Shown here: positions 6,160 through 64,000 of the stretch, in pieces
How positions within the stretch are numbered: position 1 is the stretch's first letter
Layout of the letters: every line of letters begins with the position of its first letter
NCBI GenBank assembly: GCA_938075155.1
Contig: CALJGL010000001.1
Coordinates: forward strand, 20,181-84,180
DNA length: 64,000 nucleotides
DNA from: an uncultured bacterium
GTDB lineage: Bacteria; Planctomycetota; UBA8108; UBA1146
Direction of reading: 5' to 3'
The notes under the pieces: generated by a model
The model's input: the letters and a program-made list of their open reading frames with translations, nothing else
Told to the model about the DNA's origin: nothing
Databases searched by the model: none
Made by a program: the position numbers and the translations under genes

Positions 6160-6163
6160 CTTC

Positions 6164-35517: not shown

Positions 35518-38500
35518 ATGAAAAATGCAATGTTGTTAGGACTTATTGCCTGCTTAGCAGCGCTCGTTCCTTTCACCTCCATCGAAGCCCAACCCGCAAA
35601 TGATGAATGTGCAACTGCACAAATCGTCGGCGAAGGCTCATTTCCTCTCGACAATACTGGATCGGTCGTAGAAGGCCCAACAGACTGTGACGCCCAAATG
35701 AGCACAGATGTCTGGTTCCTCTACACCGCCACTGATACAGGAAATGCTCTTATCGAGACCTGTAACACTCTTGGAACGATGGACGACACCGTTCTTATCG
35801 TTTACGACGGCGCACTGGGTTGCCCGACGGCAGGCGCAGCCTGCCTCGTCAGCGATGACGACGGTTGCACCGCTCCAAACTTTAGTTCCACAGTACAGCT
35901 GCCTGTCATTTCAGGTGAGTCCTACCTCGTTCAGGTCGGTGGCTGGAATGGCGCAGTGGGATCGAGTGACCTCAGTATTTCAATCCTTGGTGCAGAGATT
36001 TGCGATGACGGCATCGATAACGACGCCGACGGAGCCATCGACTGTGCAGACATCGACTGTGGTGGCGACCCTGTCTGCGGTACCGAAATTTGCGACGACG
36101 GAATCGACAACGATGGCGATGCAGCTGTCGATTGTGCCGACCTCGACTGCATAGGTACTCCCGCCTGTCCTTCAGCAACAAATGACGACTGTGCCAATGC
36201 CACACCCGTCGGAGAAGGTATTTTCCCCGTTGATAATACTATTTCGACACTAGACGGCCCCACCGACGCTGATGCGAACATGGGTACAGACGTTTGGTAC
36301 CTCTACACCGCAAGCGAAACCGGCAATGCTATCATCCAGACTTGTGAGACTCTGGGCACCTTGGATGACACTGTCATCATCGTTTACGACGGTGCTGCAG
36401 GTTGCCCAATTGCTGGATCTCCATTCCTCGGGAGCGATGACGACGGCTGTGCAAACCCAGCCTTCAGTTCTATCGTGAACATTCCCGTCTTTGCTGGAGA
36501 CACCTACCTTGTTCAGGTCGGTGGCTGGAACGGTGCAGTGGGAACAAGTGATCTCGATATTTCGATCGCTGCTCCCGAAATCTGCGACGACGGAATCGAT
36601 AACGACTTCGACGGCACCATCGACTGTGCAGATACAGACTGCATCGGCTTCCCAACATGCGGAGCTGAAGTCTGTGACGACGGTCTTGATAACGACGGCG
36701 ATGGACTGATCGACTGTCTCGACTTGACCGACTGTCTCGGAACCCCTTCCTGTCCTGCGGCCAGTAACGACGAATGCATCACTTCGACAGAAATCGTCAT
36801 CACCGGTTCGGGTATCTACACGGCAGCGATGGACAATAACTCCGCTTCCACGGGACTCGATCCTCTTCCAACTATTCCCTGTAACGTGTTGGGACAGCTG
36901 GCCAACGATATCTGGTACTCCTTTACTCCCGACGTGGACATGAGTGTTGAACTTCACACCTGTGACCCCCTCGGATGGGATACAGATTTGGTTCTCTACG
37001 AAGGCGCAGATTGCAGCCTTCTCACAGAATTAGCTTGTGACGGTGACGGAGTGGGCCTCACGGGCTGCCAAGGATTCTACAGTTACATCAACTTTGTTCC
37101 GGTCTTCGCAGGAGTTGAATACAAAATCCGCTGTGGTTCATGGGGTGCTGGTCTAGGCACTGGACTTCTGACTCTGAATGCCGTGATTCCAGGTGTTGAG
37201 GACTGCCTCAACGGTCTTGACGATGACGTCGACGGACTGACCGACTGCGCAGACCCCGACTGTTTCACTGAGCCCAACTGTGATGAATCTCAAAACTGCT
37301 TCGACGGCATCGACAATGATGTCGATGGTCTGATCGACTGCCTTGACGACGATTGTGCCGCTGATCCGGGTTGTGCCGAGATTTGTGACGACGGCTTAGA
37401 CAATGACGGTGACGGACTGATTGACTGTGCAGACAACACCTGTGCATGCACCGCAGCCTGCCCCATACCTCTGGACGCCGATGAATGCTGTTCGGCACTC
37501 CCAGTCACTGACGGAGCGAATGCTTTCGACACAACTCTGTTAACTGATAGTGGTAACAACATCACCAACTGCGGAGGTGGCTTCGGAGCGATGAGCACCG
37601 ATGGTTGGTTCTCATACACTGCAACCGCAGACGGTAGCCTCTTTTGGGATACATGCGATGCGGCTTCATTCGATACTGACGTAAACGTCTACACCGGATC
37701 TTGCGACGCACTCATCGACGTTGATTGCAACGGAGATGGCGTGGGTCTCACGGGCTGCCAAGCATTCTACTCCTCTGGTGGTTTCCAGGTTCTTTCAGGT
37801 GAGACTTACTTTATCCGTATCGGTGGATTTGGTGCAGGAACTGCAGGATTGGGCACACTGAATATCAGTGTCACCTGTGCAGATCTGATCACCGGCTTTG
37901 CCGGAGCAAACGACTGCTCAACTAACGATGTCACGTTAACTTGGGATCCTGCTGGTTACGACACTTACGACGTTTCCAGAGACGGTGTGGTTCTTGCCAC
38001 CGGTCTTCCCGCTGGCACCGTCAGCTACATTGACAGTTCTGGACTGGCCAATGGCACATACAACTACGAAGTTTCAGGCGTCTGTAACGCAGGTGGTGGC
38101 GATACCCAGCAGACGAGTGTCTCTGTGGCATGCTCCTCAGGTGGAGAAACAGACCTGATCATCAATACTGATCCAGGACTTGGACTGGTTGATAGTACGG
38201 GTGCCCTTGAAGTCGCTCTGACCGCCAACGGCATCGCATTCCTAACCGTTCCGGATGCACCTGCAACCCTTCTCGGTAGCGTCATCGGTTCATACGAAAG
38301 AGTCTGGGTCATGACTGGTACCTTCGGCTCCGACGGCCGTTTGACGAGTGCCGACAGTGATGCACTGGGTTCCTGGATTGAAGCTGGAATCGGCGTCTAC
38401 CTCGAAGGTGGAGACCACTGGGGATTCGCAGTAAATGCCGGTAACTTTGATAACTACGACGGCGTCATTGGCGCTGCAGATGGAGATGACACCTTCGTCA

Positions 38501-39105
38501 GCATGAACGGGTTAGATACTCTGATCGGAACCGACTGGAGTGATCTCCTCGGCGTGCCCTACACTCAGGATCAGGCGGGTAATGACTGGACTGACCAGTT
38601 GACCGTTGGCCCCGAGTTGGGTGGACCCGATGTTGGCGCGATCTGGCAAGAGGCCGCTGGACTTTACACCACGGGTGCTCTTAGCCTGAACCAAGACTTG
38701 GGAGGTAGCCCCATTGGAGTTGCCCTTATCCAGTCTTGGGAATTTGGTGGCTTCGGTGGAGATCAGACCGATCTCGCTGCACGCATGCTCGCTGCATTGG
38801 GCGGCAACAGCGGTCCTGTCGGTCCAAACTTCGGCCGTGGTGACTGTAATGCCGACGGCGGATTTAACATTGCGGACGCCATCTTTGTGTTGGCTGCACT
38901 CTTCAGTGGAGGACCGTCTGGGACTTGTCTCGACGCCTGTGATTCCAATGACGATGGCGGAGTCAACATTGCGGACGCGATCTTCTCACTGGCAGCCTTG
39001 TTCAGTGGTGGTCCTCCTCCGAGTGCTCCTGCGCCCGGCACCTGTGGTCTAGATGCCACCGATACCGACGCACTCGACTGTGTGTCATTCCCACCATGCC
39101 CGTAA
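35518..39105 (+). CDS. Giant secreted protein 1 (1195 aa): four Cys-rich beta-sandwich modules, eight Asp/Cys-rich repeats, a shared central module and a C-terminal double dockerin-like module
   Basis: The gene has the RBS AGGGAG and a signal peptide ([24 protein letters not shown]). The repeated module has the pattern NDECA...DVWFLYTA...TC..DT...Y.G..GC....C..DDDGC...Y.VQVGGW. The [22 protein letters not shown] repeats occur eight times. The C-terminus reads [26 protein letters not shown]...[25 protein letters not shown]...DCVSFPPCP. Confidence 0.85.
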
Positions 39106-39446: not shown

Positions 39447-41498
39447 ATGCTTTCAAACTCGTCGAGTTTAATAACGTCCCAGATTCTCCATCGGTCGATA
39501 AACCTACTGATCATTTCCGTGGCCTTATTGATCAGTTCTCGTTGTCAATCTCAGGTGATCCCTACAGGACTCCTCGAAGAAACTCCCCCTCGATCCGCGA
39601 ACACCTCATCCGGAACGGGTCCGCTGTCTCCTTCGGATCTCGTCGCGGGTCCTTTCTCCCTCTCCGGGAGCAGTGCCTACGGCATCTGTTACATGCCTGG
39701 AAATAACCCTTGGGGACTTCCGATCCTTGTGGTGGCTGAACTCTTCAGTGCTGAAAGCTGGGTCTACAATGCGCTGGATTTGACACCACTCTCGTCCATT
39801 CCAAATCCCCCATCTGGAATTTCTGTAACAGGAGTCACGACAGATGGGACTTATTTGTATTGGGGAGTGATCAATCCACCCGGTCCCAATGAACTCTGGA
39901 GATCCAATCCGGACGGAAGCTCTGCGTTTCTTCTCGGAGAGGCAGACATTCAAGGTGGTGGATTTATTGGAGGACTTTGCTGGGATGGGAATCAAGGCAT
40001 TTGGGCTAACGACATCACCGCGGATCAATATGACCTTCTCTCCATCAGTGACGGTACATATTTAGGCGTATCTGTTGACCACCCAGATGGAGGTGGAATG
40101 GGGAACGGCCTTGCCTTCAGAGCCGACTGTCAACGTCTCGCCATACCTCATGGGCATGACTTCTCAGGGAGAGTAACGACGATTTCGAGTACCTCGACAC
40201 AAAGTTCAATCCCCCTAGGCCCCGTGGACATCAGTGAGAACGGTTTCTTCATCAATGGAATTGAAAGCTCTCGCCCCGCAGTCGATCCGATGGCTGATCC
40301 GTTTGGGATCTTCACATATTGGGTCGTCGATAATTCCAGCAACACCATATCAGTCGTAGAGGGGCACGACGGATGCCCAACTCTCATCGACCCCATCCAA
40401 GAGTTTGAATGCAGTGCTGACAGCGATGGTGTCATCCAAGTGACATGGAACAGATCTTCTCAAATCGAGAATATGGAGATCCGTCTCGATGGAATCCTAA
40501 TGGCGACCGTTCCAGCGAGTCAGGGGAACTGGACGGGTGTGTCACCGACACTCCCAGACGTCCTACGGATTCAAATCCAGGGTTTCAATGGCAATAATTG
40601 GACCCCCCCCACCCACTGTGACTTGGTTCTTCCAGGATGTAATCCCTCTGTAATGGAAGTCGCCCACGTCACCAATAGCGAAGAGTTGGCTTTGGGAACT
40701 CCATTTTGTGGAGACTTGAATGGACACTTGGAACAGTCCTATTGGAGATCGTTTTCTCCATGCCTCTCTCCATTTTCACTCTCTGACGGTTTGATTCTGG
40801 AATCTATTCGATTGGGCATTGAGCAATCTGACCCAGCGCCGGGTATGCAAACCCAACCCCTCGTCCTCAAGATCTATCAGGACCCCGACGGTGGCGACGT
40901 GGGTCCAATATCCACTTTGGTTCTCCTCCATGAACAAGTATTCCTAGCTCCGGCTCTCTCTATGAATCATTTATGCGTCACGTTGGATGCTCCCCTAACA
41001 ATTCCGTGTGATCTCGACGTCGTTGTAGAGATTTTTCTTCCCGACGGTAGTCTCGATGGACATGTTTTTGTTCTGGGTTCAAATTCAAATGGTGAATCTC
41101 ATGAAACATGGCTTTCAGCACCGGGATGCTCCATCGACTCACCCACCCCTCTCTCTAACTTGGGATACATCAATCGTCACATCGTGATGCAGTTCAGAGG
41201 ATCACTTCCGGATTCAAACTTCGCTCGGGGTGATATCAATTCGGACAACTCCATCAATTTGGTCGATGCTGTTTTATTATTGGAAGCTCTATTCACTCCA
41301 GGCGCAGAACCCTTGAACTGTCAAGATGCCGCGGATGGAAATGACGACGAAGGCGTGAATTTGGCGGATGCCATTTTTATTCTCAGCTACCTTTTCATTC
41401 CTGGGTCACCTGAGATTCCCGATCCGACAACCTCATGTGGCCCTGATCCCACCTCTCCAACTCTTCTGGATTGTCAAATTCATCCAAATTGTCCCTGA
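39447..41498 (+). CDS. Giant secreted protein 2 (~683 aa from the internal start; the ORF track start is 39387): Fn3-like/beta-rich region and a C-terminal double dockerin-like module
   Basis: The signal-like segment is MLSNSSSLITSQILHRSINLLIISVALLISS. The C-terminus reads ARGDINSDNSINLVDAVLLLEALF...NDDEGVNLADAIFILSYLF...LLDCQIHPNCP. Confidence 0.75.
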   Translation: MLSNSSSLITSQILHRSINLLIISVALLISSRCQSQVIPTGLLEETPPRSANTSSGTGPLSPSDLVAGPFSLSGSSAYGICYMPGNNPWGLPILVVAELFSAESWVYNALDLTPLSSIPNPPSGISVTGVTTDGTYLYWGVINPPGPNELWRSNPDGSSAFLLGEADIQGGGFIGGLCWDGNQGIWANDITADQYDLLSISDGTYLGVSVDHPDGGGMGNGLAFRADCQRLAIPHGHDFSGRVTTISSTSTQSSIPLGPVDISENGFFINGIESSRPAVDPMADPFGIFTYWVVDNSSNTISVVEGHDGCPTLIDPIQEFECSADSDGVIQVTWNRSSQIENMEIRLDGILMATVPASQGNWTGVSPTLPDVLRIQIQGFNGNNWTPPTHCDLVLPGCNPSVMEVAHVTNSEELALGTPFCGDLNGHLEQSYWRSFSPCLSPFSLSDGLILESIRLGIEQSDPAPGMQTQPLVLKIYQDPDGGDVGPISTLVLLHEQVFLAPALSMNHLCVTLDAPLTIPCDLDVVVEIFLPDGSLDGHVFVLGSNSNGESHETWLSAPGCSIDSPTPLSNLGYINRHIVMQFRGSLPDSNFARGDINSDNSINLVDAVLLLEALFTPGAEPLNCQDAADGNDDEGVNLADAIFILSYLFIPGSPEIPDPTTSCGPDPTSPTLLDCQIHPNCP

Positions 41499-41828
41499 TA
41501 TGACCATTCTGGAGTCGTGACAGGTTAATCAGGTGCTTGACCCCGGACGTGGGACAGGTAAATTTGGGATATTGGGCGAATGAGTATTTTTTTCATTTAT
41601 TTGAGGCTGTTGATGGTCTCGCAGTTATGAGTTTCGTATTGCAGAGGGCAGAACCTCTACATACGAAAAGATGGATACTCTTAGCAATAATTTGAATTTT
41701 AGTTTCCAGCATCACCCAGAGATGTTGTGAACACTTATCCTGCCATCAGATGGCATCTCGAAGTAATCAACATATTAACCGGCCAATCCGGCGTGGATTT
41801 GCCATTAAACCAGGAAGGGTTTTCTAAT

Positions 41829-44800
41829 ATGAGACACCTACCAATTCTTGCAGCACTCTGCGTGCTACTCAGTGGAGGCGTAGTTCATGCTCAGGGAGCT
41901 GACGAATGCGCTAACGCACAATCCATCAATCTCGGAGCTCCGGGAACGGTCACTGTTGTCGTGGACAACACCGCCGCGACAAACAGTGCTGAACCATTGA
42001 GCGCTGGCGGTACGTGCCCAAACACAGCTATCGGAACCACCGAGGCTGATGTTTGGTACAGTTGGACCGCACCAAATACTGGCCTTTTGGATGTCAGTAC
42101 CTGCGTTAATCCAGGTCTTCTCGACACTGATATTTATCTTTACGATGCCAGTGGCGGTTGTGCTGCTCTGATCGAAGTCGGCTGTAATGGTGACGGCGTT
42201 GATGCTAACGGCGTAGCATGCGTGAATTTCGGTTCAAACATTGTAGGTGCACCTGTTTTTGCTGGCGTGACTTACTTTTTAAGAGTCGGTGGCTGGGATG
42301 CTGGATCTCTCGGAACGACCGACATGGATGTCACATTCACTCTGGGTACGGTCGCTCCAGATAACCTGACCTGTAACTATGACGCCTTGACAAACGAAGC
42401 CGCTCTCACTTGGGATAACCTAGATCAATACGACACTCTTGATTACTACCTCAATGGTACTCTTACAGGACAACTCGACGGCACTGCTGGAGCAGCTACC
42501 GGAATCGTGAGTGGTCTGGTACCCGGCTCCAACGAGATCTGCCTTGAAGGTACCATTGGCGGAATCGCCAGTACTCAAACATGCTGCATCGTCTACATTG
42601 CCGAGCCATGTCCTCCGACTGTTGCCGCAACCATGTCTCCGATTGCCACGGTCATTCCTCTTATTGGAACCGTCTCCTGTAATGCAGCCGGACTTCACGC
42701 CGACAACTCATACCTGCGTTCCTTTGATTTGGTCAATGGATACGGAGTCAGCGACGAGATTACAGTCGAATGCGTAACGACAGCTGTCGACGTTTCCACT
42801 CCAGGTGCTGCAGGTACTCAGCCTGTCCGAGTTCGCCTGATTGTTGACGTCAACGGTGGTGGTCCACAGAACTTCACCTATCTTGCGGGAACCAATGTCG
42901 GACAAACTCCGGATATTGGAAACAACTCCATGATCATGGTCTACGAAGAAGAGTTCCAGCTTCCTGCTATCCAGGGACTTGAAAACTTCAACTTCGTTCT
43001 CGGTACCGGTGTCGTTGACCCGGATGCCCTCGGCGCCAACAATCCGACACTTCAGTGCATGACCGCATACGGACCCAGTGCAACTCTCGCAGTTGAGATT
43101 TTCACTCCCGACGGACAAACTGACGGACACTCATACTTCATGGGTGCTTCTGACACTGCTGTCGAAAATGGAGTCAGTTACATTGTTTCATTGGCTTGCG
43201 GCCTGAACAGCCCCAGCCCTCTCTCCGGAATTGGTTTTCCCAACAACCGTTACATCATGGACGTCGGCTACTCCGTCGCAGTTGCAGGAACCTGTGGCAG
43301 TGCTGGTGGGGTTTCCAACCTTCAGTGTAACCAAACTGTCGGAGAACAGACCTGGAACCTGACATGGGACGACGCCGGTGGTGCCACCTCATGGATCGTT
43401 GAAGTCGACGGCAATGTGGAGGCCATCCTTCCGAGCACCGACTTGGCGTTCACGACTGGACCCCAGTTCGAGTACCAAGATGTTGACGTTTTGATCAGCT
43501 CCTGGACTGGACCTGGTGGAACCGGAACATTGATCAACTCTGCGGGTTGTACTCTTCAAACCGCCCCAGCCAACAACTGGCCAGAGGGTGCAAGCATCAC
43601 TGCTTCAGGTACTTTCCAGCAGGAGATTGCCACACCGTACACAACGACTATTGGTCAGCCGCTCGATATCGCTGTTTGTGACCCGGGAACTGGTGTCGTC
43701 CAGATCAACAACGACATCTTCTTGCGCTACACCGCTACCAACGACGGCGATGTTTTAGTCAGTACCTGTAACCCAAATACGGCCATCAACGGTGATGACA
43801 CCATGCTTGCCGTCTACACATATGACGCCGCTCTTCTCGATGATCCGAATCTCGCGATCGCCTGTAATGACGATGTCAATGTAGGTGCAAACCCGACTAA
43901 TAACCCCGCCTGTAACGTTTTCCTCGCTGAGGCGATCTTTGCAGCGACAACAGGAACCGAGTACCTCATTCGTCTCGGTACCTTCAACGCAGCAGGTACA
44001 GGAGCACTCGAGTACACGATTAATGATTGTGTCCCTGCGACCAACATCTCAGGAGCTTCAGAGTGCACCACGGGAGACGTGACCTTGAACTGGACACCGA
44101 ACCCGAACGCTGCGTCTCAGGAAATCCTGCGTGACGGCGTTTCTCTCGCAGTAATAGGCGCAACAGAAACCAGTTACATCGATTTGGGTGTGGCTGATGG
44201 CAACTACCTTTACGAGGTAGTGACCGATTGTGGTGGCGGCCCCAACCCCATTGGCGTCGCAATCTCTGTGCTGACCTACGCGGGTCAGACTGACCTTATC
44301 TTCGCGGTTGAGGGACTTCTGAACGCTGGAGACCCCGGACTGGTAGACAGTGGAGCACTTCTTGAAACCGCTCTTGCGGGTGCCGGAAGAACCGTCGGCT
44401 TGATCCGAGGTAGCTGGCTTGATTACCCCTGTGCCAGTGACGCAGGAGTTTCCAACGTCTGGATTCTGGCAGGAACCGTACCTAACGATTACCGCATCTC
44501 TGTCGCTGAGGGTGACGAACTCGCAATACTTGGAGAAGCCGGTAAGGGCGTTTACTTCGAAGGTGGAGATCACTTCGGATTCATTCACGCAGCCAGCCTG
44601 TTTGACTCTCGTGATGGCGTGGACGATGGTACATACGATACTGGTGACGGAGATGACACCTTCACCGCCATGGACGGAGCAGATTCCGGACAGGGTCTCG
44701 ATATGAGTGCCAATGCTGATGTGCCTTACACTCAGGATCAGGCTGACAACGACTGGACAGACCAGTTGACGGTGGCCAATGCTGATACAGGACTGTCTGG

Positions 44801-45281
44801 CGCTGGTTCACTCTGGCTCTCTGACGATGCCTTGGTCGATGCCGCGGGTGCTCCGATTCCTCCGTACATTACTGCTATTGCCGGTACTGCAAACGTGGGT
44901 GGAAACACCGTCGTTCAGTCCTGGGAAATCGGTGGATACGGTGGCGATCAAACGGCTCTCGCTCTTGCATACGCAGAGTTCATCGAGGGTGGTGGATCAA
45001 CCGGACCAATCTTTAAGCGTGGAGATGCAAACCAAGATGGTGGATTCAATATTGCTGACGAGGTCTTCCTATTGGCAGCCCTCTTCTCGGGTGGAACTCC
45101 CTGTGAATGCGACGACAGTTGTGACCAAAATGACGACGGTGGAGTAAATATTGCCGACGCGATCTATGGTCTTGCTGCGCTCTTCTCGGGTGGCCCCGCT
45201 CCTTCAGACCCTGGACCGAGTGTCTGCGGCGAGGATCCCACGGCTGACTCACTCACTTGTGACACCTACAACGGCTGTTAA
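41829..45281 (+). CDS. Giant secreted protein 3 (~1150 aa; the ORF track start is 41727): two Cys-rich beta-sandwich modules, the shared central module and a C-terminal double dockerin-like module
   Basis: The likely start is MRHLPILAALCVLLSGGVVHAQGADECANAQ..., which is a signal peptide. The central module (QTDLIFAVEGLL...GGDHFGF...[18 protein letters not shown]...QSWEIGGYGGDQT) is shared with proteins 1 and 4. The C-terminus reads [27 protein letters not shown]...[22 protein letters not shown]...LTCDTYNGC. Confidence 0.85.
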   Translation: MRHLPILAALCVLLSGGVVHAQGADECANAQSINLGAPGTVTVVVDNTAATNSAEPLSAGGTCPNTAIGTTEADVWYSWTAPNTGLLDVSTCVNPGLLDTDIYLYDASGGCAALIEVGCNGDGVDANGVACVNFGSNIVGAPVFAGVTYFLRVGGWDAGSLGTTDMDVTFTLGTVAPDNLTCNYDALTNEAALTWDNLDQYDTLDYYLNGTLTGQLDGTAGAATGIVSGLVPGSNEICLEGTIGGIASTQTCCIVYIAEPCPPTVAATMSPIATVIPLIGTVSCNAAGLHADNSYLRSFDLVNGYGVSDEITVECVTTAVDVSTPGAAGTQPVRVRLIVDVNGGGPQNFTYLAGTNVGQTPDIGNNSMIMVYEEEFQLPAIQGLENFNFVLGTGVVDPDALGANNPTLQCMTAYGPSATLAVEIFTPDGQTDGHSYFMGASDTAVENGVSYIVSLACGLNSPSPLSGIGFPNNRYIMDVGYSVAVAGTCGSAGGVSNLQCNQTVGEQTWNLTWDDAGGATSWIVEVDGNVEAILPSTDLAFTTGPQFEYQDVDVLISSWTGPGGTGTLINSAGCTLQTAPANNWPEGASITASGTFQQEIATPYTTTIGQPLDIAVCDPGTGVVQINNDIFLRYTATNDGDVLVSTCNPNTAINGDDTMLAVYTYDAALLDDPNLAIACNDDVNVGANPTNNPACNVFLAEAIFAATTGTEYLIRLGTFNAAGTGALEYTINDCVPATNISGASECTTGDVTLNWTPNPNAASQEILRDGVSLAVIGATETSYIDLGVADGNYLYEVVTDCGGGPNPIGVAISVLTYAGQTDLIFAVEGLLNAGDPGLVDSGALLETALAGAGRTVGLIRGSWLDYPCASDAGVSNVWILAGTVPNDYRISVAEGDELAILGEAGKGVYFEGGDHFGFIHAASLFDSRDGVDDGTYDTGDGDDTFTAMDGADSGQGLDMSANADVPYTQDQADNDWTDQLTVANADTGLSGAGSLWLSDDALVDAAGAPIPPYITAIAGTANVGGNTVVQSWEIGGYGGDQTALALAYAEFIEGGGSTGPIFKRGDANQDGGFNIADEVFLLAALFSGGTPCECDDSCDQNDDGGVNIADAIYGLAALFSGGPAPSDPGPSVCGEDPTADSLTCDTYNGC

Positions 45282-45357: not shown

Positions 45358-45630
45358 GTGTCCAATAGAAGAGAAACAGTTCATAGGCTGTATTGCGGCC
45401 CAGTCCTTAGACCTTTACCATTGATACTGGCTTTGTTCTTACACCAAACCCTATTCTTGTCCACTGAGGAGGTGTTCCTCGGTTCTCAATCAGGGTGTGG
45501 TGACCGGATCAATACCACGGGTTTCGAAGTTCAATCACGTAATCCGGGTTGTTCATATTTTTGGATATTTCTCAGACACACTAAATAGTGTCAGGTGACT
45601 CTTGGAGTCGCTTTTTTCTTGGAGGTTAGA

Positions 45631-48600
45631 ATGCTGATGAGATGGATACTCACAGGACTGATTCTGGTGCTCATTAACTTTTCCGGAACTGCCGATGCTC
45701 AGGTAACGATCAATGAGATTCGTACTGATCAATCTGGCTCGGATACCGATGAGTATTTCGAATTAGCAGGTCCCCCTGCAACCAGCCTTGCTGCATTGAC
45801 GTACATCGTCATTGGCGATGGTTCCACCGCCAGCGGAACTATTGAAGCCGTGGTCAGTCTTGCCGCAGGGAACATCTCCTTTTCGGGTCTGTACGTAGTT
45901 GCAGAAGATACCTTTACTCTGGGCGTCGCAGATATGACTGCAAACCTCGGATTCGAAAATAGTGACAACGTGACTCATCTTTTGGTGGAAGGCTTCTCTG
46001 GCGCACTTGCCGATGACCTCGACACCGACGATGACGGAGTTCTGGATGCCACTCCATGGACTAACATTGTCGACTGCATCTCCCTCCTCGAATTTCCGAT
46101 CGACCCTCTGACAGGACAGCCCACTGAAGGAGAGCTCGTATATTGTTCAAATACTGTGGGTCCAGATGGAACCTTTGTTCCCGGACACTCAGGACGTTGC
46201 CCCGATGGAACGGGTGATTGGGAGATTCTCGACTTTGGTGATCTGGCCTCAGATACACCTGGAAACCCCAACACCTGTCCGGAAATTTGTGATAACTCCG
46301 TAGATGACGATGGAGACGGATTCATCGACTGCCTAGACGACGAATGCTCAGGAGATCCTGCATGTGCCCCCGCACCGCTCAATGACGACTGTGCCAGTGC
46401 CACCAATATCGGAGAAGGTTCCTTCCTTGTATCCACATTTGGTTCCACGACAGATGGCCCTACCAATTGTGGCGGCAGTACTCTGAATGATGTTTGGTAT
46501 CTCTATACGGCAACGTGCAGTGGACTCGTGACCTTGACCACTTGCGGAACGTCAACTTTTAATCCGCAAATGGCGATCTATTCGGGCTCCTCAACTTGTC
46601 CTCCAGATTTCGCAAACGTATTGGCTTGTGATTCCGGAAGCTGTGCAGGATCCGGAGACCCAGAGATTCTCTTCGATGCAATTTCTGGTGAAACATACTT
46701 AGTTCAAATCGGTGGATTCAATGGTGAAAGAGGTGAACTCACCTTAACCGTCAGTTGCCCACCCGACGATTGCCACCAAGCACCCAATCCAAATTTGGAA
46801 TTTCAGGGATTCATTGGAGTCTCTGGTTCGAGTGCACCCGCAGCTCCGATTGCATATGTCGGAGACCCAGCAACAAACTTCACCTTTGATTCAATAAACA
46901 TCGCTGGTGCAGGAACTATTGAAGATCTTGATGTTGGTGTAAATATCACTCACGGGTTCATTGGAAATCTTGATATCGATTTCGTATCGCCCGCCAATAC
47001 TCAGATCAGACTTTACCAAAATGAAAACAACTCTGACGATAACATGTCCTTGATCTTCGATGACGAGGGAGCAACATACGGGAGCGATACCACTTTCAGT
47101 GGCATCCGTATGCAACCTTATGCCTTGTCTCAAGGATCCGGATCATTGGCTGACTTCGACGGCGAGCCCGCTGCTGGTAACTGGACGATTCTTGTAGCAG
47201 ACGGATTTGCAAGTACTGCAGGAGGCACCCTCGATGACTGGTCCCTCTTCATTTCCCAGCCAGAAACCATCACCGGTACCCAAGACTTCGTGATCAACAT
47301 CGATCCCAACTCCCTTGAAGGAGTCGACGATCTGGATGTGGACATGAATCTTTCCCACCCGGACCTGACTCAGGTCGAAATCGATCTCCTGTCTCCCGGA
47401 GGAACCAGTATCCGACTTCATGACAATGGAGCAGGTACAGATCTAATCGGACGCTTTGACGACGCTACGGGTCTCAACGACGGTTACGGTTCATTGATCC
47501 CATCTGGCCCGGGAACACTGGCAGACTTCGATGGCGAAATCATCGGCGGCGACTGGACCCTGACAATTGCAGCGGGAACCTCGACCGGTACATTCTCTAA
47601 CTGGGCGCTACAGGTATGCCCTGCAAACTGCCCTGCTCCCAGTGACCTTGTCATTGAGAGTGACTGCGCAGGAGATGCCGTGAACTTGTCGTGGATCAAC
47701 AACACGGCCTACTCAAATATTTCGATTGAACGCGATGGAGCCATCGTCGCCACTCTTGCCGGCGCAGACACAACGTACTCTGACGTCTCACCTCCTGAAG
47801 GATTCCACGAATACGTAGTGAGAGGTTCTTGCACATCAGGTGCAGGAATCGCTTCAGGATTCGTCGATCACTTCTCGTATAATGGTGAAGATACATTGGT
47901 CTTTGCTCTCGAAGGGCTCTTGGACGACGGCGATACTGGATCGAATGATTCAGGTGCTGCTATTCAACAAAGCCTGATCGCCTCTGGCGTCAATTCGAAG
48001 CTGATCAGGAAACAGATTGACGAATTTGCATGCCTCGACCCCGCTCAGATTTCTCAGGTATGGGTTCTTTGTGGAACTTTCCCCACGAACTTCCGTCTCA
48101 ATAGCGCTGAAGCGGACCTATTGGCATCGCTTGCAGAAGCAGGAGCTTCGGTCTACTTCGAGAGTTCTGATCATTGGAGCTTCAACCACCCGATTTCGAC
48201 GTTCGATGATCGAGATGGTGTTGCAGAACCTTACGAGCAAGACGACAACGACTCTCTCGTCGGCTTAGATGGTGCAGATAGTGGTGTCGGACTGGATATG
48301 TCTGCAAACCAGAACGTGCCTTACTCGCAAGATAATCAATCCACGACCGGAAACCCCAATGACTTCACGAACATCCTCATTCCAGCCACAGCAGAACTCG
48401 CAGGAGGAACCGCAGGTTTGGCATGGAGATTCGACGACGCCATCGGTGTCACTTTTGGAGTCACGACCGCCTACATTCCGGGAACCGGTGGAAGAGTGAT
48501 CTGCTCCTCATTCGAATTGGGGGGATACGGTGGAAACCTCGATAGCGTCGTTTCCGCTTACCATGACTTCCTTGGAGATAGTGTCGTCACTCCTGGAACT

Positions 48601-48873
48601 GGATTCCAGAGAGGTGACTGCAACTCTGATGGTGGATTCAACATTGCGGACGCCATCTTCCTTCTCGGAAATCTGTTCTCTGGTGGCCCAGAAGGCACCT
48701 GTACTGACGCTTGCGATGCGAACGACGACGGCAGTGTCAACATTGCAGATGCCATCGCTGCCCTAGGAAGCCTGTTCAGTGGAGCGGGACCACTTCCTGA
48801 CCCGTTTGGCGATTGTGGAGAAGACCCCACTTCAGACAGCATCGAATGCGCTGAGTACAACAGCTGCCCCTGA
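45631..48873 (+). CDS. Giant secreted protein 4 (~1080 aa; the ORF track start is 45595): lamin-tail domain, one Cys-rich beta-sandwich module, two proprotein-convertase P-like domains, the shared central module and a C-terminal double dockerin-like module
   Basis: The RBS GGAGG precedes MLMRWILTGLILVLINFSGTADA. The region QVTINEIRTDQSGSDTDEYFELAG... is LTD-like. Two segments of the form ...GxLxDxDVxxNITHGFIGNLDIDFVSPANTQIRL...GNWTILVADGFASTAGGTLDDWSLFI are P-domain-like. The C-terminus reads [27 protein letters not shown]...NDDGSVNIADAIAALGSLFSG...IECAEYNSCP. Confidence 0.85.
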   Translation: MLMRWILTGLILVLINFSGTADAQVTINEIRTDQSGSDTDEYFELAGPPATSLAALTYIVIGDGSTASGTIEAVVSLAAGNISFSGLYVVAEDTFTLGVADMTANLGFENSDNVTHLLVEGFSGALADDLDTDDDGVLDATPWTNIVDCISLLEFPIDPLTGQPTEGELVYCSNTVGPDGTFVPGHSGRCPDGTGDWEILDFGDLASDTPGNPNTCPEICDNSVDDDGDGFIDCLDDECSGDPACAPAPLNDDCASATNIGEGSFLVSTFGSTTDGPTNCGGSTLNDVWYLYTATCSGLVTLTTCGTSTFNPQMAIYSGSSTCPPDFANVLACDSGSCAGSGDPEILFDAISGETYLVQIGGFNGERGELTLTVSCPPDDCHQAPNPNLEFQGFIGVSGSSAPAAPIAYVGDPATNFTFDSINIAGAGTIEDLDVGVNITHGFIGNLDIDFVSPANTQIRLYQNENNSDDNMSLIFDDEGATYGSDTTFSGIRMQPYALSQGSGSLADFDGEPAAGNWTILVADGFASTAGGTLDDWSLFISQPETITGTQDFVINIDPNSLEGVDDLDVDMNLSHPDLTQVEIDLLSPGGTSIRLHDNGAGTDLIGRFDDATGLNDGYGSLIPSGPGTLADFDGEIIGGDWTLTIAAGTSTGTFSNWALQVCPANCPAPSDLVIESDCAGDAVNLSWINNTAYSNISIERDGAIVATLAGADTTYSDVSPPEGFHEYVVRGSCTSGAGIASGFVDHFSYNGEDTLVFALEGLLDDGDTGSNDSGAAIQQSLIASGVNSKLIRKQIDEFACLDPAQISQVWVLCGTFPTNFRLNSAEADLLASLAEAGASVYFESSDHWSFNHPISTFDDRDGVAEPYEQDDNDSLVGLDGADSGVGLDMSANQNVPYSQDNQSTTGNPNDFTNILIPATAELAGGTAGLAWRFDDAIGVTFGVTTAYIPGTGGRVICSSFELGGYGGNLDSVVSAYHDFLGDSVVTPGTGFQRGDCNSDGGFNIADAIFLLGNLFSGGPEGTCTDACDANDDGSVNIADAIAALGSLFSGAGPLPDPFGDCGEDPTSDSIECAEYNSCP

Positions 48874-51915: not shown

Positions 51916-52787
51916 TCTTCAGCCTCAAGATCCAGCCAGGTCGCCCAGGTCCCTGGGTCGAGTCGACTCTTCACTATCCAAGTTCGAATCCACTCCTTGG
52001 GTGAGATTCCCACTGCTTGTCCATGCTCAAGAACCTTACCTTTTTCAAGGCAATAATGGGCCACGGTATAACTCCATGCCCTGATCTGTTGAGCACTGCT
52101 ACTGGAGCCAATGATTTCCAACTCTCGTTGGCCCAGCTCCGTCATACCGTGAGTGACTAATCCCCGGGTTCCGTCCTTGGATTCCCAAAGCCTAAAGTCG
52201 ATCCAAATTCTCAAGGGAAGATTGACTGGCGTCATCGAAGCACAGGATTCTTCAAAAGCTTTCCACGAATGAAGAGCGGTAGAACCATCCCAATAGATTC
52301 CGAGAGCACCGTAATTGTTTCCCAATAGAAGTGAGATCCTAGTCAACAACAATGCACCCTGAACCGAATACCGAATCACCGAATCATCGAGTGGCGGTGC
52401 ATCTGGAGCATCCGGAAAAACCTCAAGGACACCCTCGCCTTCAATATTCGGAGTTTCTTCTACCACCTCAGTGGGCTCCATTTTTGGAGGCTCTGGAATT
52501 CGTGGATCAGAGATCACCACAATAAAGTAGGAAGAATGTTTATTGATTTCAGACTCTGCATCACTCCAGTACCAAGCTGCTTTCAGCGGTTCCTGAAGGA
52601 TCTCAACCGGAATCGGATGATTCCTTAATGAAGCCTTGATGGAAACTCCCGCAACTTCTGCGATGACCGTCCCACCTTCATCTGCTAGGCGGACAATAGT
52701 GTCCTCCCCCAGCAGATCCCTCATTTGGTCTCCCAGTTCATTTAAATCTACATCAGAATTTTCGCGCAACGGAATGAGTGAAATCAT
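51912..52787 (-). CDS. Hypothetical protein (291 aa)
   Basis: The ORF has 4-nt ATGA-type overlaps with both neighbours (the metallophosphoesterase upstream and wecB downstream), which suggests an operon. I recognise no domain. Confidence 0.5.
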   Translation of the reverse strand: MISLIPLRENSDVDLNELGDQMRDLLGEDTIVRLADEGGTVIAEVAGVSIKASLRNHPIPVEILQEPLKAAWYWSDAESEINKHSSYFIVVISDPRIPEPPKMEPTEVVEETPNIEGEGVLEVFPDAPDAPPLDDSVIRYSVQGALLLTRISLLLGNNYGALGIYWDGSTALHSWKAFEESCASMTPVNLPLRIWIDFRLWESKDGTRGLVTHGMTELGQRELEIIGSSSSAQQIRAWSYTVAHYCLEKGKVLEHGQAVGISPKEWIRTWIVKSRLDPGTWATWLDLEAEE

Positions 52788-59663: not shown

Positions 59664-62600
59664 TTAGGGGCAAGAGTTATACTCTGCACACTCCAGATTA
59701 GTACCACTGGGATCAGAACCACAGACTCCATTGGAAGGAACTGGGATATCGGGCCCATTGGTAAACAGATAGCTCAACAAGTAAACGGCATCCGCAATGT
59801 TACTCAGCTCATCGTCATTGGTATCGGTTGCGTCATCACAGGACACGACCCCACCTAAGAAAAGTGCGTTGAGTAGCGAGACGGCATCTGCCAAGTTTAT
59901 CAAAGCATCGTCATTGATGTCCGCACGAATAAACCCACCTACACTCGGATTCAATGTGATGGTTCCATTCACTCCTGATACACCAGCAGACTGTGAACTC
60001 ACAACTACAACGAGTTCAACAGGCGGAACACCAAGAGTATCGGAGAATTCGACCTGAGTACTCAATGGTGCGGTATTACCTGCTAAACCAGCAGGAACTG
60101 TATCGTATTCGACAGACAACAGGTCTGTTGCAGTAGCAAACGAAATCACGTCCGCACCTACGAATGTATAAACACAGCCCACTGTGAGGCCATCCGCAAA
60201 ACTATTCACATCAAAGAAGTCAGGTCCCGTGTTTCCATTCAAGGCCGTCAGTACCGGAGCGGCGATCGCACCTGTCGCGGACAAGATTGCAGGATCATGG
60301 ACAATACCTAATGAAAATGCTTGAGTCTCATTGGGATAACCTAGGTTCCCTGGATCTTCCTCAACCGAAACGGAAACTTCAAAGGAGCTGCTACCCGTCG
60401 CTTCTGGGTAATCCACTGCTTGGTCAGCAGCCGTCATGATAAAGCCTGAAGGATCAAGACTGATGGTTCCTGAGTTTCCACCGGCAATAACAGCCGTACC
60501 TGACGAAGTCGACACAATCAACTCTACTGGAGGAGAGCCCAAAGATTCGGAAAAGCTAAGCGTAGAGGAAACGGTGCCCGTGGCACTCGCCAGTGATCCT
60601 GGAAGTGAGGTGTAACTCACAGAAATGATTTCTGTATCCGACACCATTTGCAATGTTTCGACGAGAGTGAAGTCGTACACCGATCCGACCGTGAGTCCGT
60701 CGGAGTAGATGGTGGTATCAAAGAAAGCAGGACCCGCTCCACCGTCCATGGCAGCAAGATCTCCGAGAGCCTGTGCAGAAACTGCTTCAAACAATGCCCC
60801 ATCATGAGCTAATCCGAAGGAGAACCCGGCTGTGTCTGTTGGGAATCCCGGATTGTTCACTTCTTCCTGGAGAGAGACAACACTTTCAAAGCTTGCTCCA
60901 CCGGCACTGTAGGAACCGTTGACATTCCCGGCCGTGAACATGAATCCAATCTGCTGAATCACGTCAATACTGCAAGTACTCGTGGGTGCCGCTTGGGATC
61001 CTGCACAAAATGGCTGAAGGGTGTAAACACGACTGCCGACTTGAGCGGAGGAATCCGTGTAACTCGTCGCTGTTCCCGGCAGGGTATCTACCAGTCCGCC
61101 ATCCCGAAGCACTCCAATAGAGTCATAGTCTTCTCCATTGTTCCATGAAAGAAGAATTGAGTTCCCACTGACCTGACTACAAGAAAAAGCATTCGCCGAT
61201 ACACAGATACAATCCGGATCAGAAATACAATCGGGATCTTCGCAATCGGTCAGCCCATCCAAATCATCATCTGTTCCGTTGTTGCAGTTCTCAGGAGGAG
61301 GCGGAGGAGCCTGGGTGCTGATTTCGAGAGTACCGGATCCAATCGCCGTATTATTCCACCCGCCCAAGCGGATCAATACTGTGGATCCAGCACTGAGATT
61401 GGTGGTCACGGAACTGGTCAAGCCACCGCATCCTGCACCATCACCATTACAGGCGATGGGAGTGAGAGCTCCACAAGTTCCAGAATAAACCAAGATATCG
61501 GAATCAAAGGTGACCGTATCACACGTTGAGATGACGTACTCTCCGGAGGAAGGCACAGTGAACTCGAACCAAACATCGTTGATAAAATCACCGAGGAATG
61601 TTCCTCCACAGGTCGAGTCATCTATCGCGTCCGCTCCGGTCGTCGCGGCTGTGTTATCCACTGCATTCGATCCCAGAATAGCGACTTGAGCAGTAGAACA
61701 TTCGTCACCCGGAATAGCAGGGACACATGCTGGGTCGCTAGAACAATCGAGGTCCTCGCAATCAGCAAGACCGTCTCCATCGTCATCGACACCATTGCTG
61801 CAATTCTCCACAGGTCCACCGGATGTCAAATCAAGGATCAGTGCGCCTGGCCCCGGTAATCCATTTCCGGGATGAGGTGTTCCCCATGCCCCGATACGGA
61901 ACCAATATGTTTCGCCGGCAGTCACATCCAGAGTCAACTCTGACCAATATTGCTGACATGTTGGAGAAGTGTTTTGATTCACGTCTCCATTACAACCCAG
62001 ATTAATCAAAGAACCACAGGACCCTGTGTAGGCCACAAGATCCGTGTCAAAACTTCCGGGCGAACAAGTCGAGACAAACAGGGAACCCGATTGATCAGGA
62101 ACATAGGAGTACCAGATATCACCCAGCATATCTCCGAGTCCTTGACCACAGGTCGCGGCATCCGGAATAGGATCTGTTCCTGTTGTTGCAGCAGTGCTAT
62201 CAAAAGGATTGGTCCCCAAGATCGCCACTTCAGCCGAGACACATTCATCTCCAGTCGCGGGTGGAACACAAGCGGGGTTGGTGCTGCAATCAATGTCTTC
62301 ACAGTCCGCTAACCCGTCCCCGTCATCGTCCACACCATTGGTGCAATTTTCGACACCGCCACCGCCACTAGGAACAAACAACACTTCCATGTCACCAGAA
62401 CCGGTGACTCCCTCACTCCATGAAGAGACTCGAATCAGATAAGTGGTTCCACCCGTGACAGGAATATTCTCAATACGTGAGGTGAAAGTAGAACAGCCTC
62501 CTGTGTCACCGTTACAAGCAAGTAGATTGAGTGCTCCACAATTACCAGTGAACACTTGAAGGTCAGTGTCCCAGCTCGCAATACCACAAGTACTCACCGA

Positions 62601-64000
62601 CATCGTTCCCGCTTCGGGAGCAGAATATGAGTACCAAATGTCATTACCGCAGGCACCAATGGCGGTACCCGGACAAGCAGAGTCATCGGGTCCAGGTCCT
62701 CCTGTGGTCGCATTTCCACTCGTGATGGAATTCAGACCAATGAATACAGGAGTCGCTCCGGCACAATCATCATTCGCCGGAGGTGGTCCCGGAGGAACCT
62801 GACCACAGACCAACTCTGACATTCCCACAGCAGTCATCACCGCTGCAATTTGGTCAGCGTCTGATTGCGTGAAAACCGAGCCGGCAACACCCGTCCGAGG
62901 GTCGATAGGACTCGAGTTGAGCAAGTCAGCAGCCGCTTGATTAATATGGGTTTCAGCCTGAGGGAAATCAGTGGCCTGAGTCATGTAGACGCTGAGGGCT
63001 CGGAAGTAAACCGCTGTTGCCTTCGTCAGCCCAATCGGCGTGATCGTTTGGCCATTATAGGTTTTACCATCGACGAGAATGGCAAATGAATGATTCAAGA
63101 CTCCACTCCCGATGTGCACCCCACCATTATCAAATGGACCACAAGCATTTTGGTTATAGAGAGGATCAGTAGTACTCGGAGGATCGTTGAAACACTCCGG
63201 GAACATCATATCCCGAATAGCACCTAGGCTCGTTTCTTCACCCATCCTCCAACGAGCGGAACCATCACCGCATCCTGTTCTTGCATTGTTTGGAGTATCC
63301 AGACCAGATCCACTCGAACCCGCGATAGGCCAAGGTGTACCGCCGGGAGCGCCAATTTCTGAAACGTCACCGTTCCAAAGATCGATCGCTTCTCCAAAGA
63401 TATCTGACATCGCCTCATTCAGCTGACCAGATTGATTTTGGTAAATCAGGTCTGCCGTGAATTGTGTCAATCCATGAGCGAGTTCGTGAGCGATCACATC
63501 GTCGGTACCCAGCCCATTACAAAACGCACCTTGAGTCCCATTCCATATAGCATTGGGACAAATATTATCGCTCCAGTTGGCAGTGATGATCATGGATCCA
63601 CCGAATCCGTCTAGGCTATCTCTGCCCAGAGAATCAGAGAGCACACGATAAAGATCACCACATGTATCGTAGGAGTTATCGATATCAAGGATTCCGGATG
63701 CAGGGGACCCTTCTGTTCTGGCAAGTGCTCCAGGGAGCCCTCCACCTCCGGATCCGTCATAGATCTCACGGATCAGGGCACTATGTACTGCAGGCCAGTG
63801 GTCGAGGACCACTCCGGTTCTGGCATCAACAAGAATGTTTTCAGCCAACATGTCATTACCTTCGGCAACGAGATGATGCGCCAGTACAGGAGCAGCGATG
63901 GGGTCGTCCCCCCACCAGCCCGGATTCGCGATGACCAGCTGAGCAGGAGCCGTCTCTACTAAAAATTCCTGCCCAAGTTCCTGTGCTGCTAGTTCAACAG
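59664..64000 (-). CDS. Thermolysin-like M4 zinc metalloprotease fused to three Cys-rich beta-sandwich modules, Asp/Cys-rich repeats, Fn3-like/beta domains and a C-terminal double dockerin-like module; the N-terminus runs off the window
   Basis: The HEXXH motif (VIAHELAHGL) and the downstream NEAMSDIFGE are the M4 signature. The reading frame stays open upstream of Met 63851 to the window end (...VETAPAQLVIANPGWWGDDPIAAPVLAHHLVAEGNDMLAENILVDARTG). There are three copies of the NDDCA...DIWYSY...TC..DT...C.GD..C...Y..R.G.W module. The C-terminus reads ADINDDALINLADAVSLLNALF...NDDELSNIADAVYLLSYLF...LECAEYNSCP. Confidence 0.85.
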   Translation of the reverse strand, partial: VELAAQELGQEFLVETAPAQLVIANPGWWGDDPIAAPVLAHHLVAEGNDMLAENILVDARTGVVLDHWPAVHSALIREIYDGSGGGGLPGALARTEGSPASGILDIDNSYDTCGDLYRVLSDSLGRDSLDGFGGSMIITANWSDNICPNAIWNGTQGAFCNGLGTDDVIAHELAHGLTQFTADLIYQNQSGQLNEAMSDIFGEAIDLWNGDVSEIGAPGGTPWPIAGSSGSGLDTPNNARTGCGDGSARWRMGEETSLGAIRDMMFPECFNDPPSTTDPLYNQNACGPFDNGGVHIGSGVLNHSFAILVDGKTYNGQTITPIGLTKATAVYFRALSVYMTQATDFPQAETHINQAAADLLNSSPIDPRTGVAGSVFTQSDADQIAAVMTAVGMSELVCGQVPPGPPPANDDCAGATPVFIGLNSITSGNATTGGPGPDDSACPGTAIGACGNDIWYSYSAPEAGTMSVSTCGIASWDTDLQVFTGNCGALNLLACNGDTGGCSTFTSRIENIPVTGGTTYLIRVSSWSEGVTGSGDMEVLFVPSGGGGVENCTNGVDDDGDGLADCEDIDCSTNPACVPPATGDECVSAEVAILGTNPFDSTAATTGTDPIPDAATCGQGLGDMLGDIWYSYVPDQSGSLFVSTCSPGSFDTDLVAYTGSCGSLINLGCNGDVNQNTSPTCQQYWSELTLDVTAGETYWFRIGAWGTPHPGNGLPGPGALILDLTSGGPVENCSNGVDDDGDGLADCEDLDCSSDPACVPAIPGDECSTAQVAILGSNAVDNTAATTGADAIDDSTCGGTFLGDFINDVWFEFTVPSSGEYVISTCDTVTFDSDILVYSGTCGALTPIACNGDGAGCGGLTSSVTTNLSAGSTVLIRLGGWNNTAIGSGTLEISTQAPPPPPENCNNGTDDDLDGLTDCEDPDCISDPDCICVSANAFSCSQVSGNSILLSWNNGEDYDSIGVLRDGGLVDTLPGTATSYTDSSAQVGSRVYTLQPFCAGSQAAPTSTCSIDVIQQIGFMFTAGNVNGSYSAGGASFESVVSLQEEVNNPGFPTDTAGFSFGLAHDGALFEAVSAQALGDLAAMDGGAGPAFFDTTIYSDGLTVGSVYDFTLVETLQMVSDTEIISVSYTSLPGSLASATGTVSSTLSFSESLGSPPVELIVSTSSGTAVIAGGNSGTISLDPSGFIMTAADQAVDYPEATGSSSFEVSVSVEEDPGNLGYPNETQAFSLGIVHDPAILSATGAIAAPVLTALNGNTGPDFFDVNSFADGLTVGCVYTFVGADVISFATATDLLSVEYDTVPAGLAGNTAPLSTQVEFSDTLGVPPVELVVVVSSQSAGVSGVNGTITLNPSVGGFIRADINDDALINLADAVSLLNALFLGGVVSCDDATDTNDDELSNIADAVYLLSYLFTNGPDIPVPSNGVCGSDPSGTNLECAEYNSCP

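Follow-up and report, generated by a model that had tools for sequence, protein, structure and literature searches.

The repeated cysteine-rich module of four planctomycete proteins is a divergent member of Pfam PF23759 related to pre-peptidase C-terminal domains

Pre-peptidase C-terminal (PPC) domains and the related collagen-binding domains (CBDs) are relatives of the protein module reported here. In E495, a marine M4 protease, the PPC domains bind to protein substrates and make catalysis on proteins more efficient, and in the mature forms of this enzyme one or both of them have been removed (PMC3327674). The collagenase of Grimontia has a PPC-containing C-terminal segment that attaches to triple-helical collagen and promotes collagenolysis (PMC6168687). 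The present module is encoded repeatedly in a chromosomal stretch of 64,000 nucleotides from an uncultured marine Planctomycetota (contig CALJGL010000001.1, positions 20,181 to 84,180), which is denoted as the window throughout. It is a beta-sandwich of about 135-150 residues belonging to the galactose-binding-domain-like (GBD-like) superfamily, and it represents a divergent member of the Pfam family PF23759 (GBD_T9SS_assoc) rather than a separate family.

A hidden Markov model (HMM) of the family was built from 863 homologous copies. Run on all stop-to-stop pieces of the window in six-frame translation, it detects exactly ten module domains with E-values of 1.7e-24 to 1.1e-48. Four of these are located in protein P1, two in P3, one in P4 and three in an M4 (thermolysin-type) metalloprotease, in full agreement with the number and distribution given in an earlier reading made from the letters of this DNA (the sequence-only reading), and neither P2 nor the rest of the window harbors a further one. 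The genes, taken from open reading frames (ORFs) and their translations, and the modules are:

35518..39105, forward strand: P1 gene, secreted 1195-residue protein
35590..35997, forward strand: P1 copy 1, residues 25-160; 6 Cys; family HMM E 8e-41; PF23759 17.5 bits
36172..36579, forward strand: P1 copy 2, residues 219-354; 4 Cys; family HMM E 1e-40; PF23759 14.3 bits
36757..37197, forward strand: P1 copy 3, residues 414-560; family HMM E 7e-35; PF23759 28.2 bits
37465..37893, forward strand: P1 copy 4, residues 650-792; family HMM E 4e-39; PF23759 14.0 bits
39387-41498, forward strand: P2 gene
41727-45281, forward strand: P3 gene
41886..42350, forward strand: P3 copy 1, residues 54-208; family HMM E 1.5e-33; PF23759 39.2 bits, PPC 17.8 bits
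43560..44024, forward strand: P3 copy 2, residues 612-766; family HMM E 1.7e-24; no Pfam match
45595-48873, forward strand: P4 gene
46372..46764, forward strand: P4 module, residues 260-390; 8 Cys; family HMM E 1.6e-41; PF23759 19.9 bits
59664..64000, reverse strand: gene of the M4 metalloprotease with three modules (Peptidase_M4 and Peptidase_M4_C matches)
62352..62786, reverse strand: M4 copy 1, residues 356-500 of the ORF as listed; family HMM E 1e-48; PF23759 30.7 bits
61806..62264, reverse strand: M4 copy 2, residues 530-682; family HMM E 1.6e-39; PF23759 18.8 bits
61296..61721, reverse strand: M4 copy 3, residues 711-852; family HMM E 5.5e-47; PF23759 38.2 bits

The ten copies comprise 131-155 residues each and share a median pairwise identity of 32% in a MAFFT alignment, the closest pair being P1 copies 1 and 2 with 67%. 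All-against-all BLASTP joins all of them (typical E 1e-5 to 1e-61, calculated for a database size of 2e7 residues), including the most divergent one, P3 copy 2, which is found with 3e-8 to M4 copy 2. The landmark Trp and Cys columns aligned by hand in the sequence-only reading survive proper multiple alignment. The N-terminal (N/G/A)D(E/D)C..A and D(V/I)W(Y/F).(Y/F)(T/S) columns are retained, the TC motif is invariant in 10/10 copies, and the DT.(L/I).(V/L)Y.G, C(N/D)(G/D)D and G.(T/S)Y..(R/Q).GG(W/F) columns are kept as well. Two further elements of the consensus pattern proposed there do not hold throughout, since DDDGC is present in P1 copies 1 and 2 only and GGW in 4/10 copies. The span 35590-37880, from which the repeat had been described, corresponds to P1 residues 25-788 and contains four modules together with seven acidic Cys-rich linkers.

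The family assignment is carried by PF23759 ("Galactose binding domain-like"), which matches nine of the ten copies with a best E-value of 9.5e-10, and the match of M4 copy 3 spans positions 3-109 of the 116-position profile. Four single copies reach the gathering cut-off of 27 bits, while five remain sub-threshold (14.0-19.9 bits); at the level of whole proteins P1 (43.4 bits), P3 (33.9 bits) and the M4 protease (66.6 bits) pass and P4 (15.6 bits) fails. Among 83 homologous proteins, which are the shortest of the top 150 from a search of representative proteins, 75 match PF23759 (47/49 and 28/34) with E-values down to 7e-52 and 2e-54, covering up to positions 1-111 of the model, and PPC also matches 30 of the 83. 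Because of these matches in 75 of the 83 homologues, the window copies are regarded as divergent PF23759 members. They differ from other members in their lower scores (14-39 bits), in occurring in Planctomycetota with dockerin-like tails in place of tails of the type IX secretion system (T9SS) and in being more Cys-rich than much of the family; the homologues include Saprospiraceae (Bacteroidota) proteins and proteins with a T9SS sorting tail. The family name implies such a tail, whereas the window proteins possess dockerin-like tails and no Por_Secre_tail, which is found in 3/49 homologues, and T9SS is therefore treated here as naming context and not as a requirement of the domain. In the full-text literature no paper naming PF23759 or GBD_T9SS_assoc and no member with a characterised function were found, and the family is defined by sequence and predicted fold only.

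At the superfamily level the module is homologous to a PPC domain of known structure. A profile of 57 diverse family sequences retrieves, from the sequences of the Protein Data Bank (PDB), entry 2LUW, which is the PPC domain at the C-terminus of an extracellular metalloprotease from Vibrio vulnificus, with an E-value of 1.5e-7 (34.6 bits, profile positions 36-127), while with a profile of the ten window copies the same entry is non-significant (E 0.11). The Pfam PPC profile (PF04151) has a cut-off of 25.9 bits that is reached by no copy; the best scores are those of M4 copy 1 (21.3 bits, E 5e-4, positions 4-70 of the 70-position profile) and P3 copy 1 (17.8 bits). Module and PPC have a common motif skeleton, namely an aromatic strand equivalent to DVWY.YT, D(T/a)DL.(V/l)Y.G, G.TY.I.V.G(Y/W/F) and G...L, and both sit C-terminal to an M4 catalytic domain. 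Nearly all positions conserved family-wide fall on this skeleton (W51 99%, Y118 92%, D6 91%, G130 91%, G115 90%, A11 86%, N5 85%, Y79 82% and D73 80%). The module exceeds PPC in length: ahead of the region covered by the 70-position Pfam profile it has a conserved strand, ND(D/E)C..A, at its N-terminus and then a variable loop. It is also distinguished by up to four putative disulfides, by long tandem arrays and by hosts without peptidase domains.

An AlphaFold2 model of P1 copy 1 (residues 25-160; pLDDT 81.4, pTM 0.81) displays nine beta strands, and in a Foldseek search the top nine PDB matches are all PPC or collagen-binding domains (5SV5, 1NQD, 1NQJ, 3JQW, 4HPK, 5IKU and 2O8O), with a probability of 1.00, E-values of 2.4e-5 to 6.5e-4 and an rmsd of 3.2-5.3 Å. 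The TM-scores amount to 0.51-0.62 (TMq) and to 0.65-0.72 (TMt) for single-domain chains, or 0.38 for the tandem-domain chain 5IKU. The 50 matches listed are mostly GBD-like or related beta-sandwiches, plus others such as CUB and TNF-like folds. The beta-sandwich of PPC type anticipated in the sequence-only reading is thus borne out, but not its suggestion of a distinct, disulfide-stabilised fold and a new module unrelated to PPC, PKD or carbohydrate-binding module (CBM) families. Six of the ten copies lie under the Pfam cut-off, one of them has no Pfam match and no literature on the family was found, all of which would suit a new fold; the PF23759 matches, the 2LUW match, the Foldseek superpositions onto known folds and the dispensability of the cysteines in a large share of the family leave this proposal with practically no probability.

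To judge from the predicted model, the clostridial CBDs (ColG s3b, 1NQD/1NQJ/2O8O/4HPK; ColH s3, 3JQW) and the Bacillus anthracis collagenase PPC domain (5SV5) would be the best structural counterparts. The sequence identity of the CBDs to the module is 9-18%, they do not share its disulfides, and the 57-sequence profile finds no sequence match to them in the PDB at E <= 1. The link of the module to these collagen-binding domains is one of fold similarity only. The "ND" in front of the first strand of the module is presumably comparable to the Ca2+-binding N-terminus of ColG s3b; a literature search on the Ca2+ ligands of that domain found nothing.

The Foldseek search also raises the question of carbohydrate binding, in which the variable loops would bind an algal or bacterial polysaccharide and thereby target surface proteins or enzymes to glycans. 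CBM6 and CBM35 belong to the same broad beta-sandwich superfamily (Foldseek E about 7e-4 to 2e-3, TM 0.41-0.45); the matches retrieved at E about 7e-4 to 1e-3 include both of them as well as a CBM that binds porphyran. Also the Pfam label of PF23759, "galactose binding domain-like", and the loop at HMM columns 27-47, which differs in length between copies, would fit such a role. However, the CBMs superpose less well than the PPC and collagen-binding domains (TM 0.41-0.49 versus 0.51-0.72, rmsd 7-11 versus 3.2-5.3 Å), the relative detected at the sequence level is a protease PPC domain and not a CBM family, and no glycoside hydrolase occurs among the partner domains in the 83 homologues. No Pfam CBM match was obtained for any copy or window protein. 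Glycan binding is consequently considered rather unlikely. A match to the CorA copper-binding protein (4BZ4, Foldseek E ~9e-4) was considered as a hint at metal binding and discarded as generic beta-sandwich likeness with no sequence support.

The cysteines do not define the family, because their columns are only 40-70% filled among the 863 full-length copies and many copies have none. Occupancy is 56% at column 8, 69% at column 67, ~50% at columns 82/83, 51% at column 91 and ~60% at columns 99/101; 126/863 copies have no Cys in any of the nine recurrent columns and 98/863 no Cys at all. The window copies themselves carry 4 to 8, so that the Cys positions are not fixed as had been assumed in the sequence-only reading. 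Besides the 126 copies with no recurrent Cys, the commonest patterns are the 67 + 99/101 pair alone (181 copies), six-Cys patterns in 70 and 38 copies and a five-Cys pattern without a loop-column Cys in 67 copies. Where Cys 8 is absent it is in most cases replaced by Phe, which is found at column 8 in 27% of copies.

Cysteines come and go in pairs. Their co-occurrence, expressed as phi over the 863 copies, is 0.83 for column 8 with 82/83, 0.77 for 67 with 99/101 and 0.73 for 58 with 138, and the Cys of column 91 goes with either of two loop columns that exclude each other, 38 (0.44) and 42 (0.22). Within the window, P1 copy 2, 67% identical to copy 1, has lost both the loop Cys and Cys 91, in P3 copy 2 Cys 8 and Cys 83 are both gone, and the P4 module possesses the additional 58/138 pair. 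From this covariation we infer that the planctomycete copies bear up to four optional disulfides, 8-83, 67-101, variable loop-91 and 58-138. These would constitute an optional layer on the PPC-like core, that is, real constraints which do not define the fold. Outside the window, a large Cys-free branch (homologues P0012-P0161) has Phe for Cys 8 in an ND(D/E)F.NA motif and an "(E)PGEP.H" motif in the variable loop; it is possibly a distinct functional subtype, perhaps a metal-binding one.

The modules are joined by acidic linkers that are plain members of the NCBIfam family NF033662, "acidic double-disulfide repeat", an acidic unit of 32 residues with four Cys; no difference was found between this family and the linkers of P1, P4 and the M4 protease. 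The unit reads E-x-C-D-D-G-x-D-N-D-x-D-G-x-x-D-C-x-D-x-D-C...C, with four Cys and a D-N/D-D-x-D-G-x-x-D core. Above the whole-protein cut-off of 41 bits are P1 (160.7 bits, 7 stretches) and the M4 protease (88.9 bits, 3 stretches), while the single repeat of P4 scores 21.6 bits and thus lies under it. The repeats, located by regular expression and NF033662, are:

35995..36168, forward strand: two P1 acidic repeats, residues 160-187 and 190-217
36577..36753, forward strand: two P1 acidic repeats, residues 354-381 and 384-412
37198..37461, forward strand: three P1 acidic repeats, residues 561-588, 592-619 and 621-648
46282..46365, forward strand: P4 acidic repeat, residues 230-257
61209..62351, reverse strand: span of three M4 acidic repeats, one after each module (62268-62351, 61725-61808 and 61209-61292)

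The Asp/Cys-rich linkers noted in the sequence-only reading are therefore present, although P1 has seven instead of the eight counted by eye. Their D-x-D-x-D-G core resembles DxDxDG calcium-binding loops, and we take the calcium-binding character suggested there to be plausible on the ground of this motif likeness. A full-text literature search found no paper for the "acidic double-disulfide repeat".

Concerning function, it is fairly probable that the module serves as a non-catalytic substrate-binding or spacer unit, stabilised by Ca2+ and disulfides, of secreted proteases and of surface proteins with dockerin tails. Once exported by Sec, the modules would meet oxidising conditions and abundant Ca2+ outside the cell and become protease-resistant on folding there. 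As binding and spacing elements they would hold the M4 protease and the dockerin-tailed surface proteins on substrates or particles of a polymeric and probably proteinaceous kind. Tandem copies could provide avidity and reach, with the acidic repeats acting as Ca2+-stiffened spacers in between. This function is favoured because related PPC domains bind protein substrates or collagen. In the window protease three module copies follow the M4 catalytic domain, homologues combine the module with M4, M12B reprolysin and trypsin-like peptidases, and the M4 gene has an S15 peptidase gene as its neighbour.

Several observations weigh against this assignment. Ligand binding is extrapolated from PPC relatives with about 10-18% identity, and the putative Ca2+ binding by N5/D6 and by the linkers is derived from motif resemblance and from the ColG collagen-binding domain, just as the disulfide pairing is derived from co-occurrence statistics only. 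Six of the ten window copies are under the PF23759 cut-off, including the one devoid of any Pfam match. The position C-terminal to a peptidase, characteristic of PPC, applies to the three M4 copies but not to the seven copies of P1, P3 and P4, where the modules are N-terminal or internal in non-peptidase proteins, unlike classical PPC domains. Furthermore, most close homologues are arrays without a recognisable catalytic domain, and such arrays would suit adhesion or a structural function no less than the targeting of substrates.

A purely structural role would mean that modules and acidic repeats form a rigid, Ca2+-loaded, disulfide-locked and protease-resistant stalk or fibre, which displays the C-terminal domains and is itself ligand-free. 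Up to 22-26 tandem copies in homologues, most of which have no recognisable catalytic domain, agree with such a stalk, as do the extreme acidity of the proteins and their near lack of Lys and Arg. In addition, the conserved residues W51, G60, D73/T74, Y79, G115, Y118 and G130 are mostly core positions shared with PPC, which points to the fold, and not to a single binding surface, as the object of selection. On the other hand, a spacer would not require the conservation seen at the N-terminal ND (85% and 91%) and at the polar D/S49 next to W51, and divergence to ~30% identity between copies of one protein speaks for functional diversification more than for a ruler. Moreover, those relatives whose structures are solved are binding domains (PMC3327674, PMC6168687). 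The ligand-free stalk is accordingly regarded as unlikely.

Much less probable still is a classical pre-peptidase function, according to which the modules would aid secretion or folding of the protease and be cleaved off at maturation with no role in the mature enzyme. The three modules following the M4 catalytic domain occupy the PPC position of E495, from which one or both PPC domains are lost in the mature forms (PMC3327674). Yet seven of the ten copies reside in peptidase-free proteins, the first module of P1 directly follows the signal peptide, and the modules of the M4 protease are internal, with about 540 residues beyond them including a dockerin-like tail.

In comparison with the substrate-binding or spacer role in general, a more specific extension is proposed only tentatively, as a minority possibility: the Cys-rich ND..C / DVW branch may be a functionally distinct PF23759 clade of PPC-like units stapled by up to four disulfides, which with the acidic Ca2+ repeats would build long extracellular arrays (22-26 copies in homologues). 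Its specific ligand could be, for instance, a polymer of the algal cell surface or a marine particle, and aquatic Planctomycetota and Saprospiraceae would use it as a general-purpose means of targeting secreted proteases and dockerin-tailed surface proteins.

The distribution of the family was determined, along the lines put forward with the sequence-only reading, by searching 1.84 billion representative proteins (clusters at 50% identity) exhaustively with HMMER and the ten-copy profile. This yielded 36,244 clusters at E <= 1e-3, 17,994 at E <= 1e-10 and 3,996 at E <= 1e-30, and some of the homologues hold 22-26 tandem modules. A genome search confirmed 277/423 candidate stretches, of which the best 80 were kept. 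The genome matches stem mainly from aquatic Phycisphaerae/Phycisphaerales, Planctomycetia and Saprospiraceae (Bacteroidota), with a few in metagenome-assembled genomes (MAGs) labelled Halioglobus, Limnohabitans, "Proteobacteria bacterium" and Kuenenia. Among the best 80 of 277, the closest GTDB genome is MAG BS30m-G49 (contig JADHSM010000009), with 92% identity over the first module. Proteins that share a 90%-identity cluster with P1 originate from MAGs bearing the label Planctomycetota or Planctomycetia bacterium. Partner domains of the module in the window and the 83 homologues comprise M4 (window and 2 homologues), M12B reprolysin and trypsin-like peptidases as well as the proprotein-convertase P-domain, PKD, CARDB, HYR, dockerin and the T9SS sorting tail. 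The catalytic partners in homologues are peptidases together with one lysyl oxidase and one multicopper oxidase match. A literature search on Planctomycetota with dockerin or PPC found nothing specific.

Regarding the host proteins, P1-P4 are encoded in succession, all on the forward strand, and the frame of the M4 protease is open to base 64000, so that its ORF runs beyond the end of the window. P1 is composed of a signal peptide, the four modules interleaved with seven acidic repeats, an Fn3-like module, an unannotated domain of ~240 residues and a dockerin-like tail. Hydrophobic N-terminal signal sequences can be read in P1, P3 and P4. For P3 the true start probably lies downstream of the listed GTG (41727-41830), as a typical signal peptide, MRHLPILAALCVLLSGGVVHA, starts at ORF residue 35, and the signal peptide of P4 starts at an internal Met. 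P1-P4 and the M4 protease have a pI of about 4.05, with Lys plus Arg making up 0.8% of P1 and 1.4-2.7% of P2-P4 and M4 (59664-63851), and Asp plus Glu 11-16%. This composition is compatible with resistance to trypsin-like proteases or with heavy Ca2+ loading. All five proteins are Cys-rich, with 64 Cys in P1.

All five proteins end in a dockerin-like tail, identified by five-protein alignment:

38830..39102, forward strand: P1 dockerin-like tail
41220-41495, forward strand: P2 dockerin-like tail
45009-45278, forward strand: P3 dockerin-like tail
48604-48870, forward strand: P4 dockerin-like tail
59667-59939, reverse strand: M4 protease dockerin-like tail

Paired D.N.DG..N..D loops are found in each tail, followed by CG.DPT...L.C..Y..CP up to the last residue, an ending that could be a sorting or anchoring signal. 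Dockerin_1 (PF00404) scores 16.3 bits in P1, 21.4 in P2 and 18.6 in P4, under the cut-off of 22.9 bits, and gives no match at E <= 0.1 in P3 and M4; a cohesin partner was not recognised in the window.

The ~240-residue domain is common to P1 (residues 866-1104, 38113-38829), P3 (about 44250-45020) and P4 (about 47830-48600), with the invariant motifs VW(V/I)..GT, EAG..VY.E..DH(W/F), VPY(T/S)QD and ND(W/F)T. It has no Pfam, NCBIfam or PDB-sequence match. An AlphaFold model from a 3-sequence alignment (pLDDT 43.5) is too poor for a fold search; in it the first ~100 residues are predicted as alternating beta-alpha, Rossmann- or flavodoxin-like. The domain may be the functional "head" served by the modules. 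An Fn3-like module of ~70 residues occurs in all five proteins (in P1 at about 37894-38112) with the Cys-bracketed pattern C..(V/L)(T/S)W......(I/V).RDG.....(T/S)Y.D....G.Y.Y.V..C and no Pfam match at E <= 0.1.

The C-terminal half of the M4 protease (59952-61064, reverse strand, residues about 930-1300) consists of two tandem repeats of ~185 residues, which are 41% identical over 106 aligned residues (BLASTP E 2e-25), or 37% when the MAFFT alignment is taken in full. A cohesin-like nature, considered by eye, obtained no support from Pfam (E <= 10) or the PDB profile search. P4 contains two proprotein-convertase P-domain stretches (PF01483, 83 bits) and, in the Pfam scan, no subtilisin/S8 catalytic domain, and its N-terminus (VTINEIRTDQSGSDTDEYFELAG...) may resemble a lamin-tail-type domain, as seen by eye. 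P2 residues 352-601 (40440-41189) and P3 residues 227-511 (42405-43259) have a region of ~250-285 residues in common (25% identity, BLASTP E 4e-21), to which no family was assigned.

The chromosomal surroundings include rpoB and rpoC at 1795-9928 (reverse strand). An S15 X-Pro dipeptidyl peptidase gene directly adjoins the M4 gene, and a protein with LamG-like and metallophosphatase domains is encoded nearby:

57020-58993, reverse strand: S15 X-Pro dipeptidyl peptidase gene
52784-54697, reverse strand: LamG-like and metallophosphatase gene

Together with the M4 gene this arrangement suggests a local cluster for the degradation of extracellular polymers.

The PF23759 family and the NF033662 linker were already known, and what is new is a divergent, Cys-rich set of planctomycete members. 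For four planctomycete proteins so far "hypothetical", the annotation becomes that of secreted, acidic and disulfide-rich chains composed of PF23759 (PPC-like) modules with NF033662 spacers; one of the four is an M4 protease. The family is very large and experimentally untouched, and the pairwise gain and loss of Cys provides a testable disulfide map for constructs and structural work. Should the Cys-rich branch be a distinct clade with its own ligand, identification of that ligand would annotate a large block of hypothetical environmental proteins (~36,000 clusters). A role in directing proteases to particulate protein, if confirmed, would make the modules relevant to the processing of particulate organic nitrogen by marine planctomycetes.

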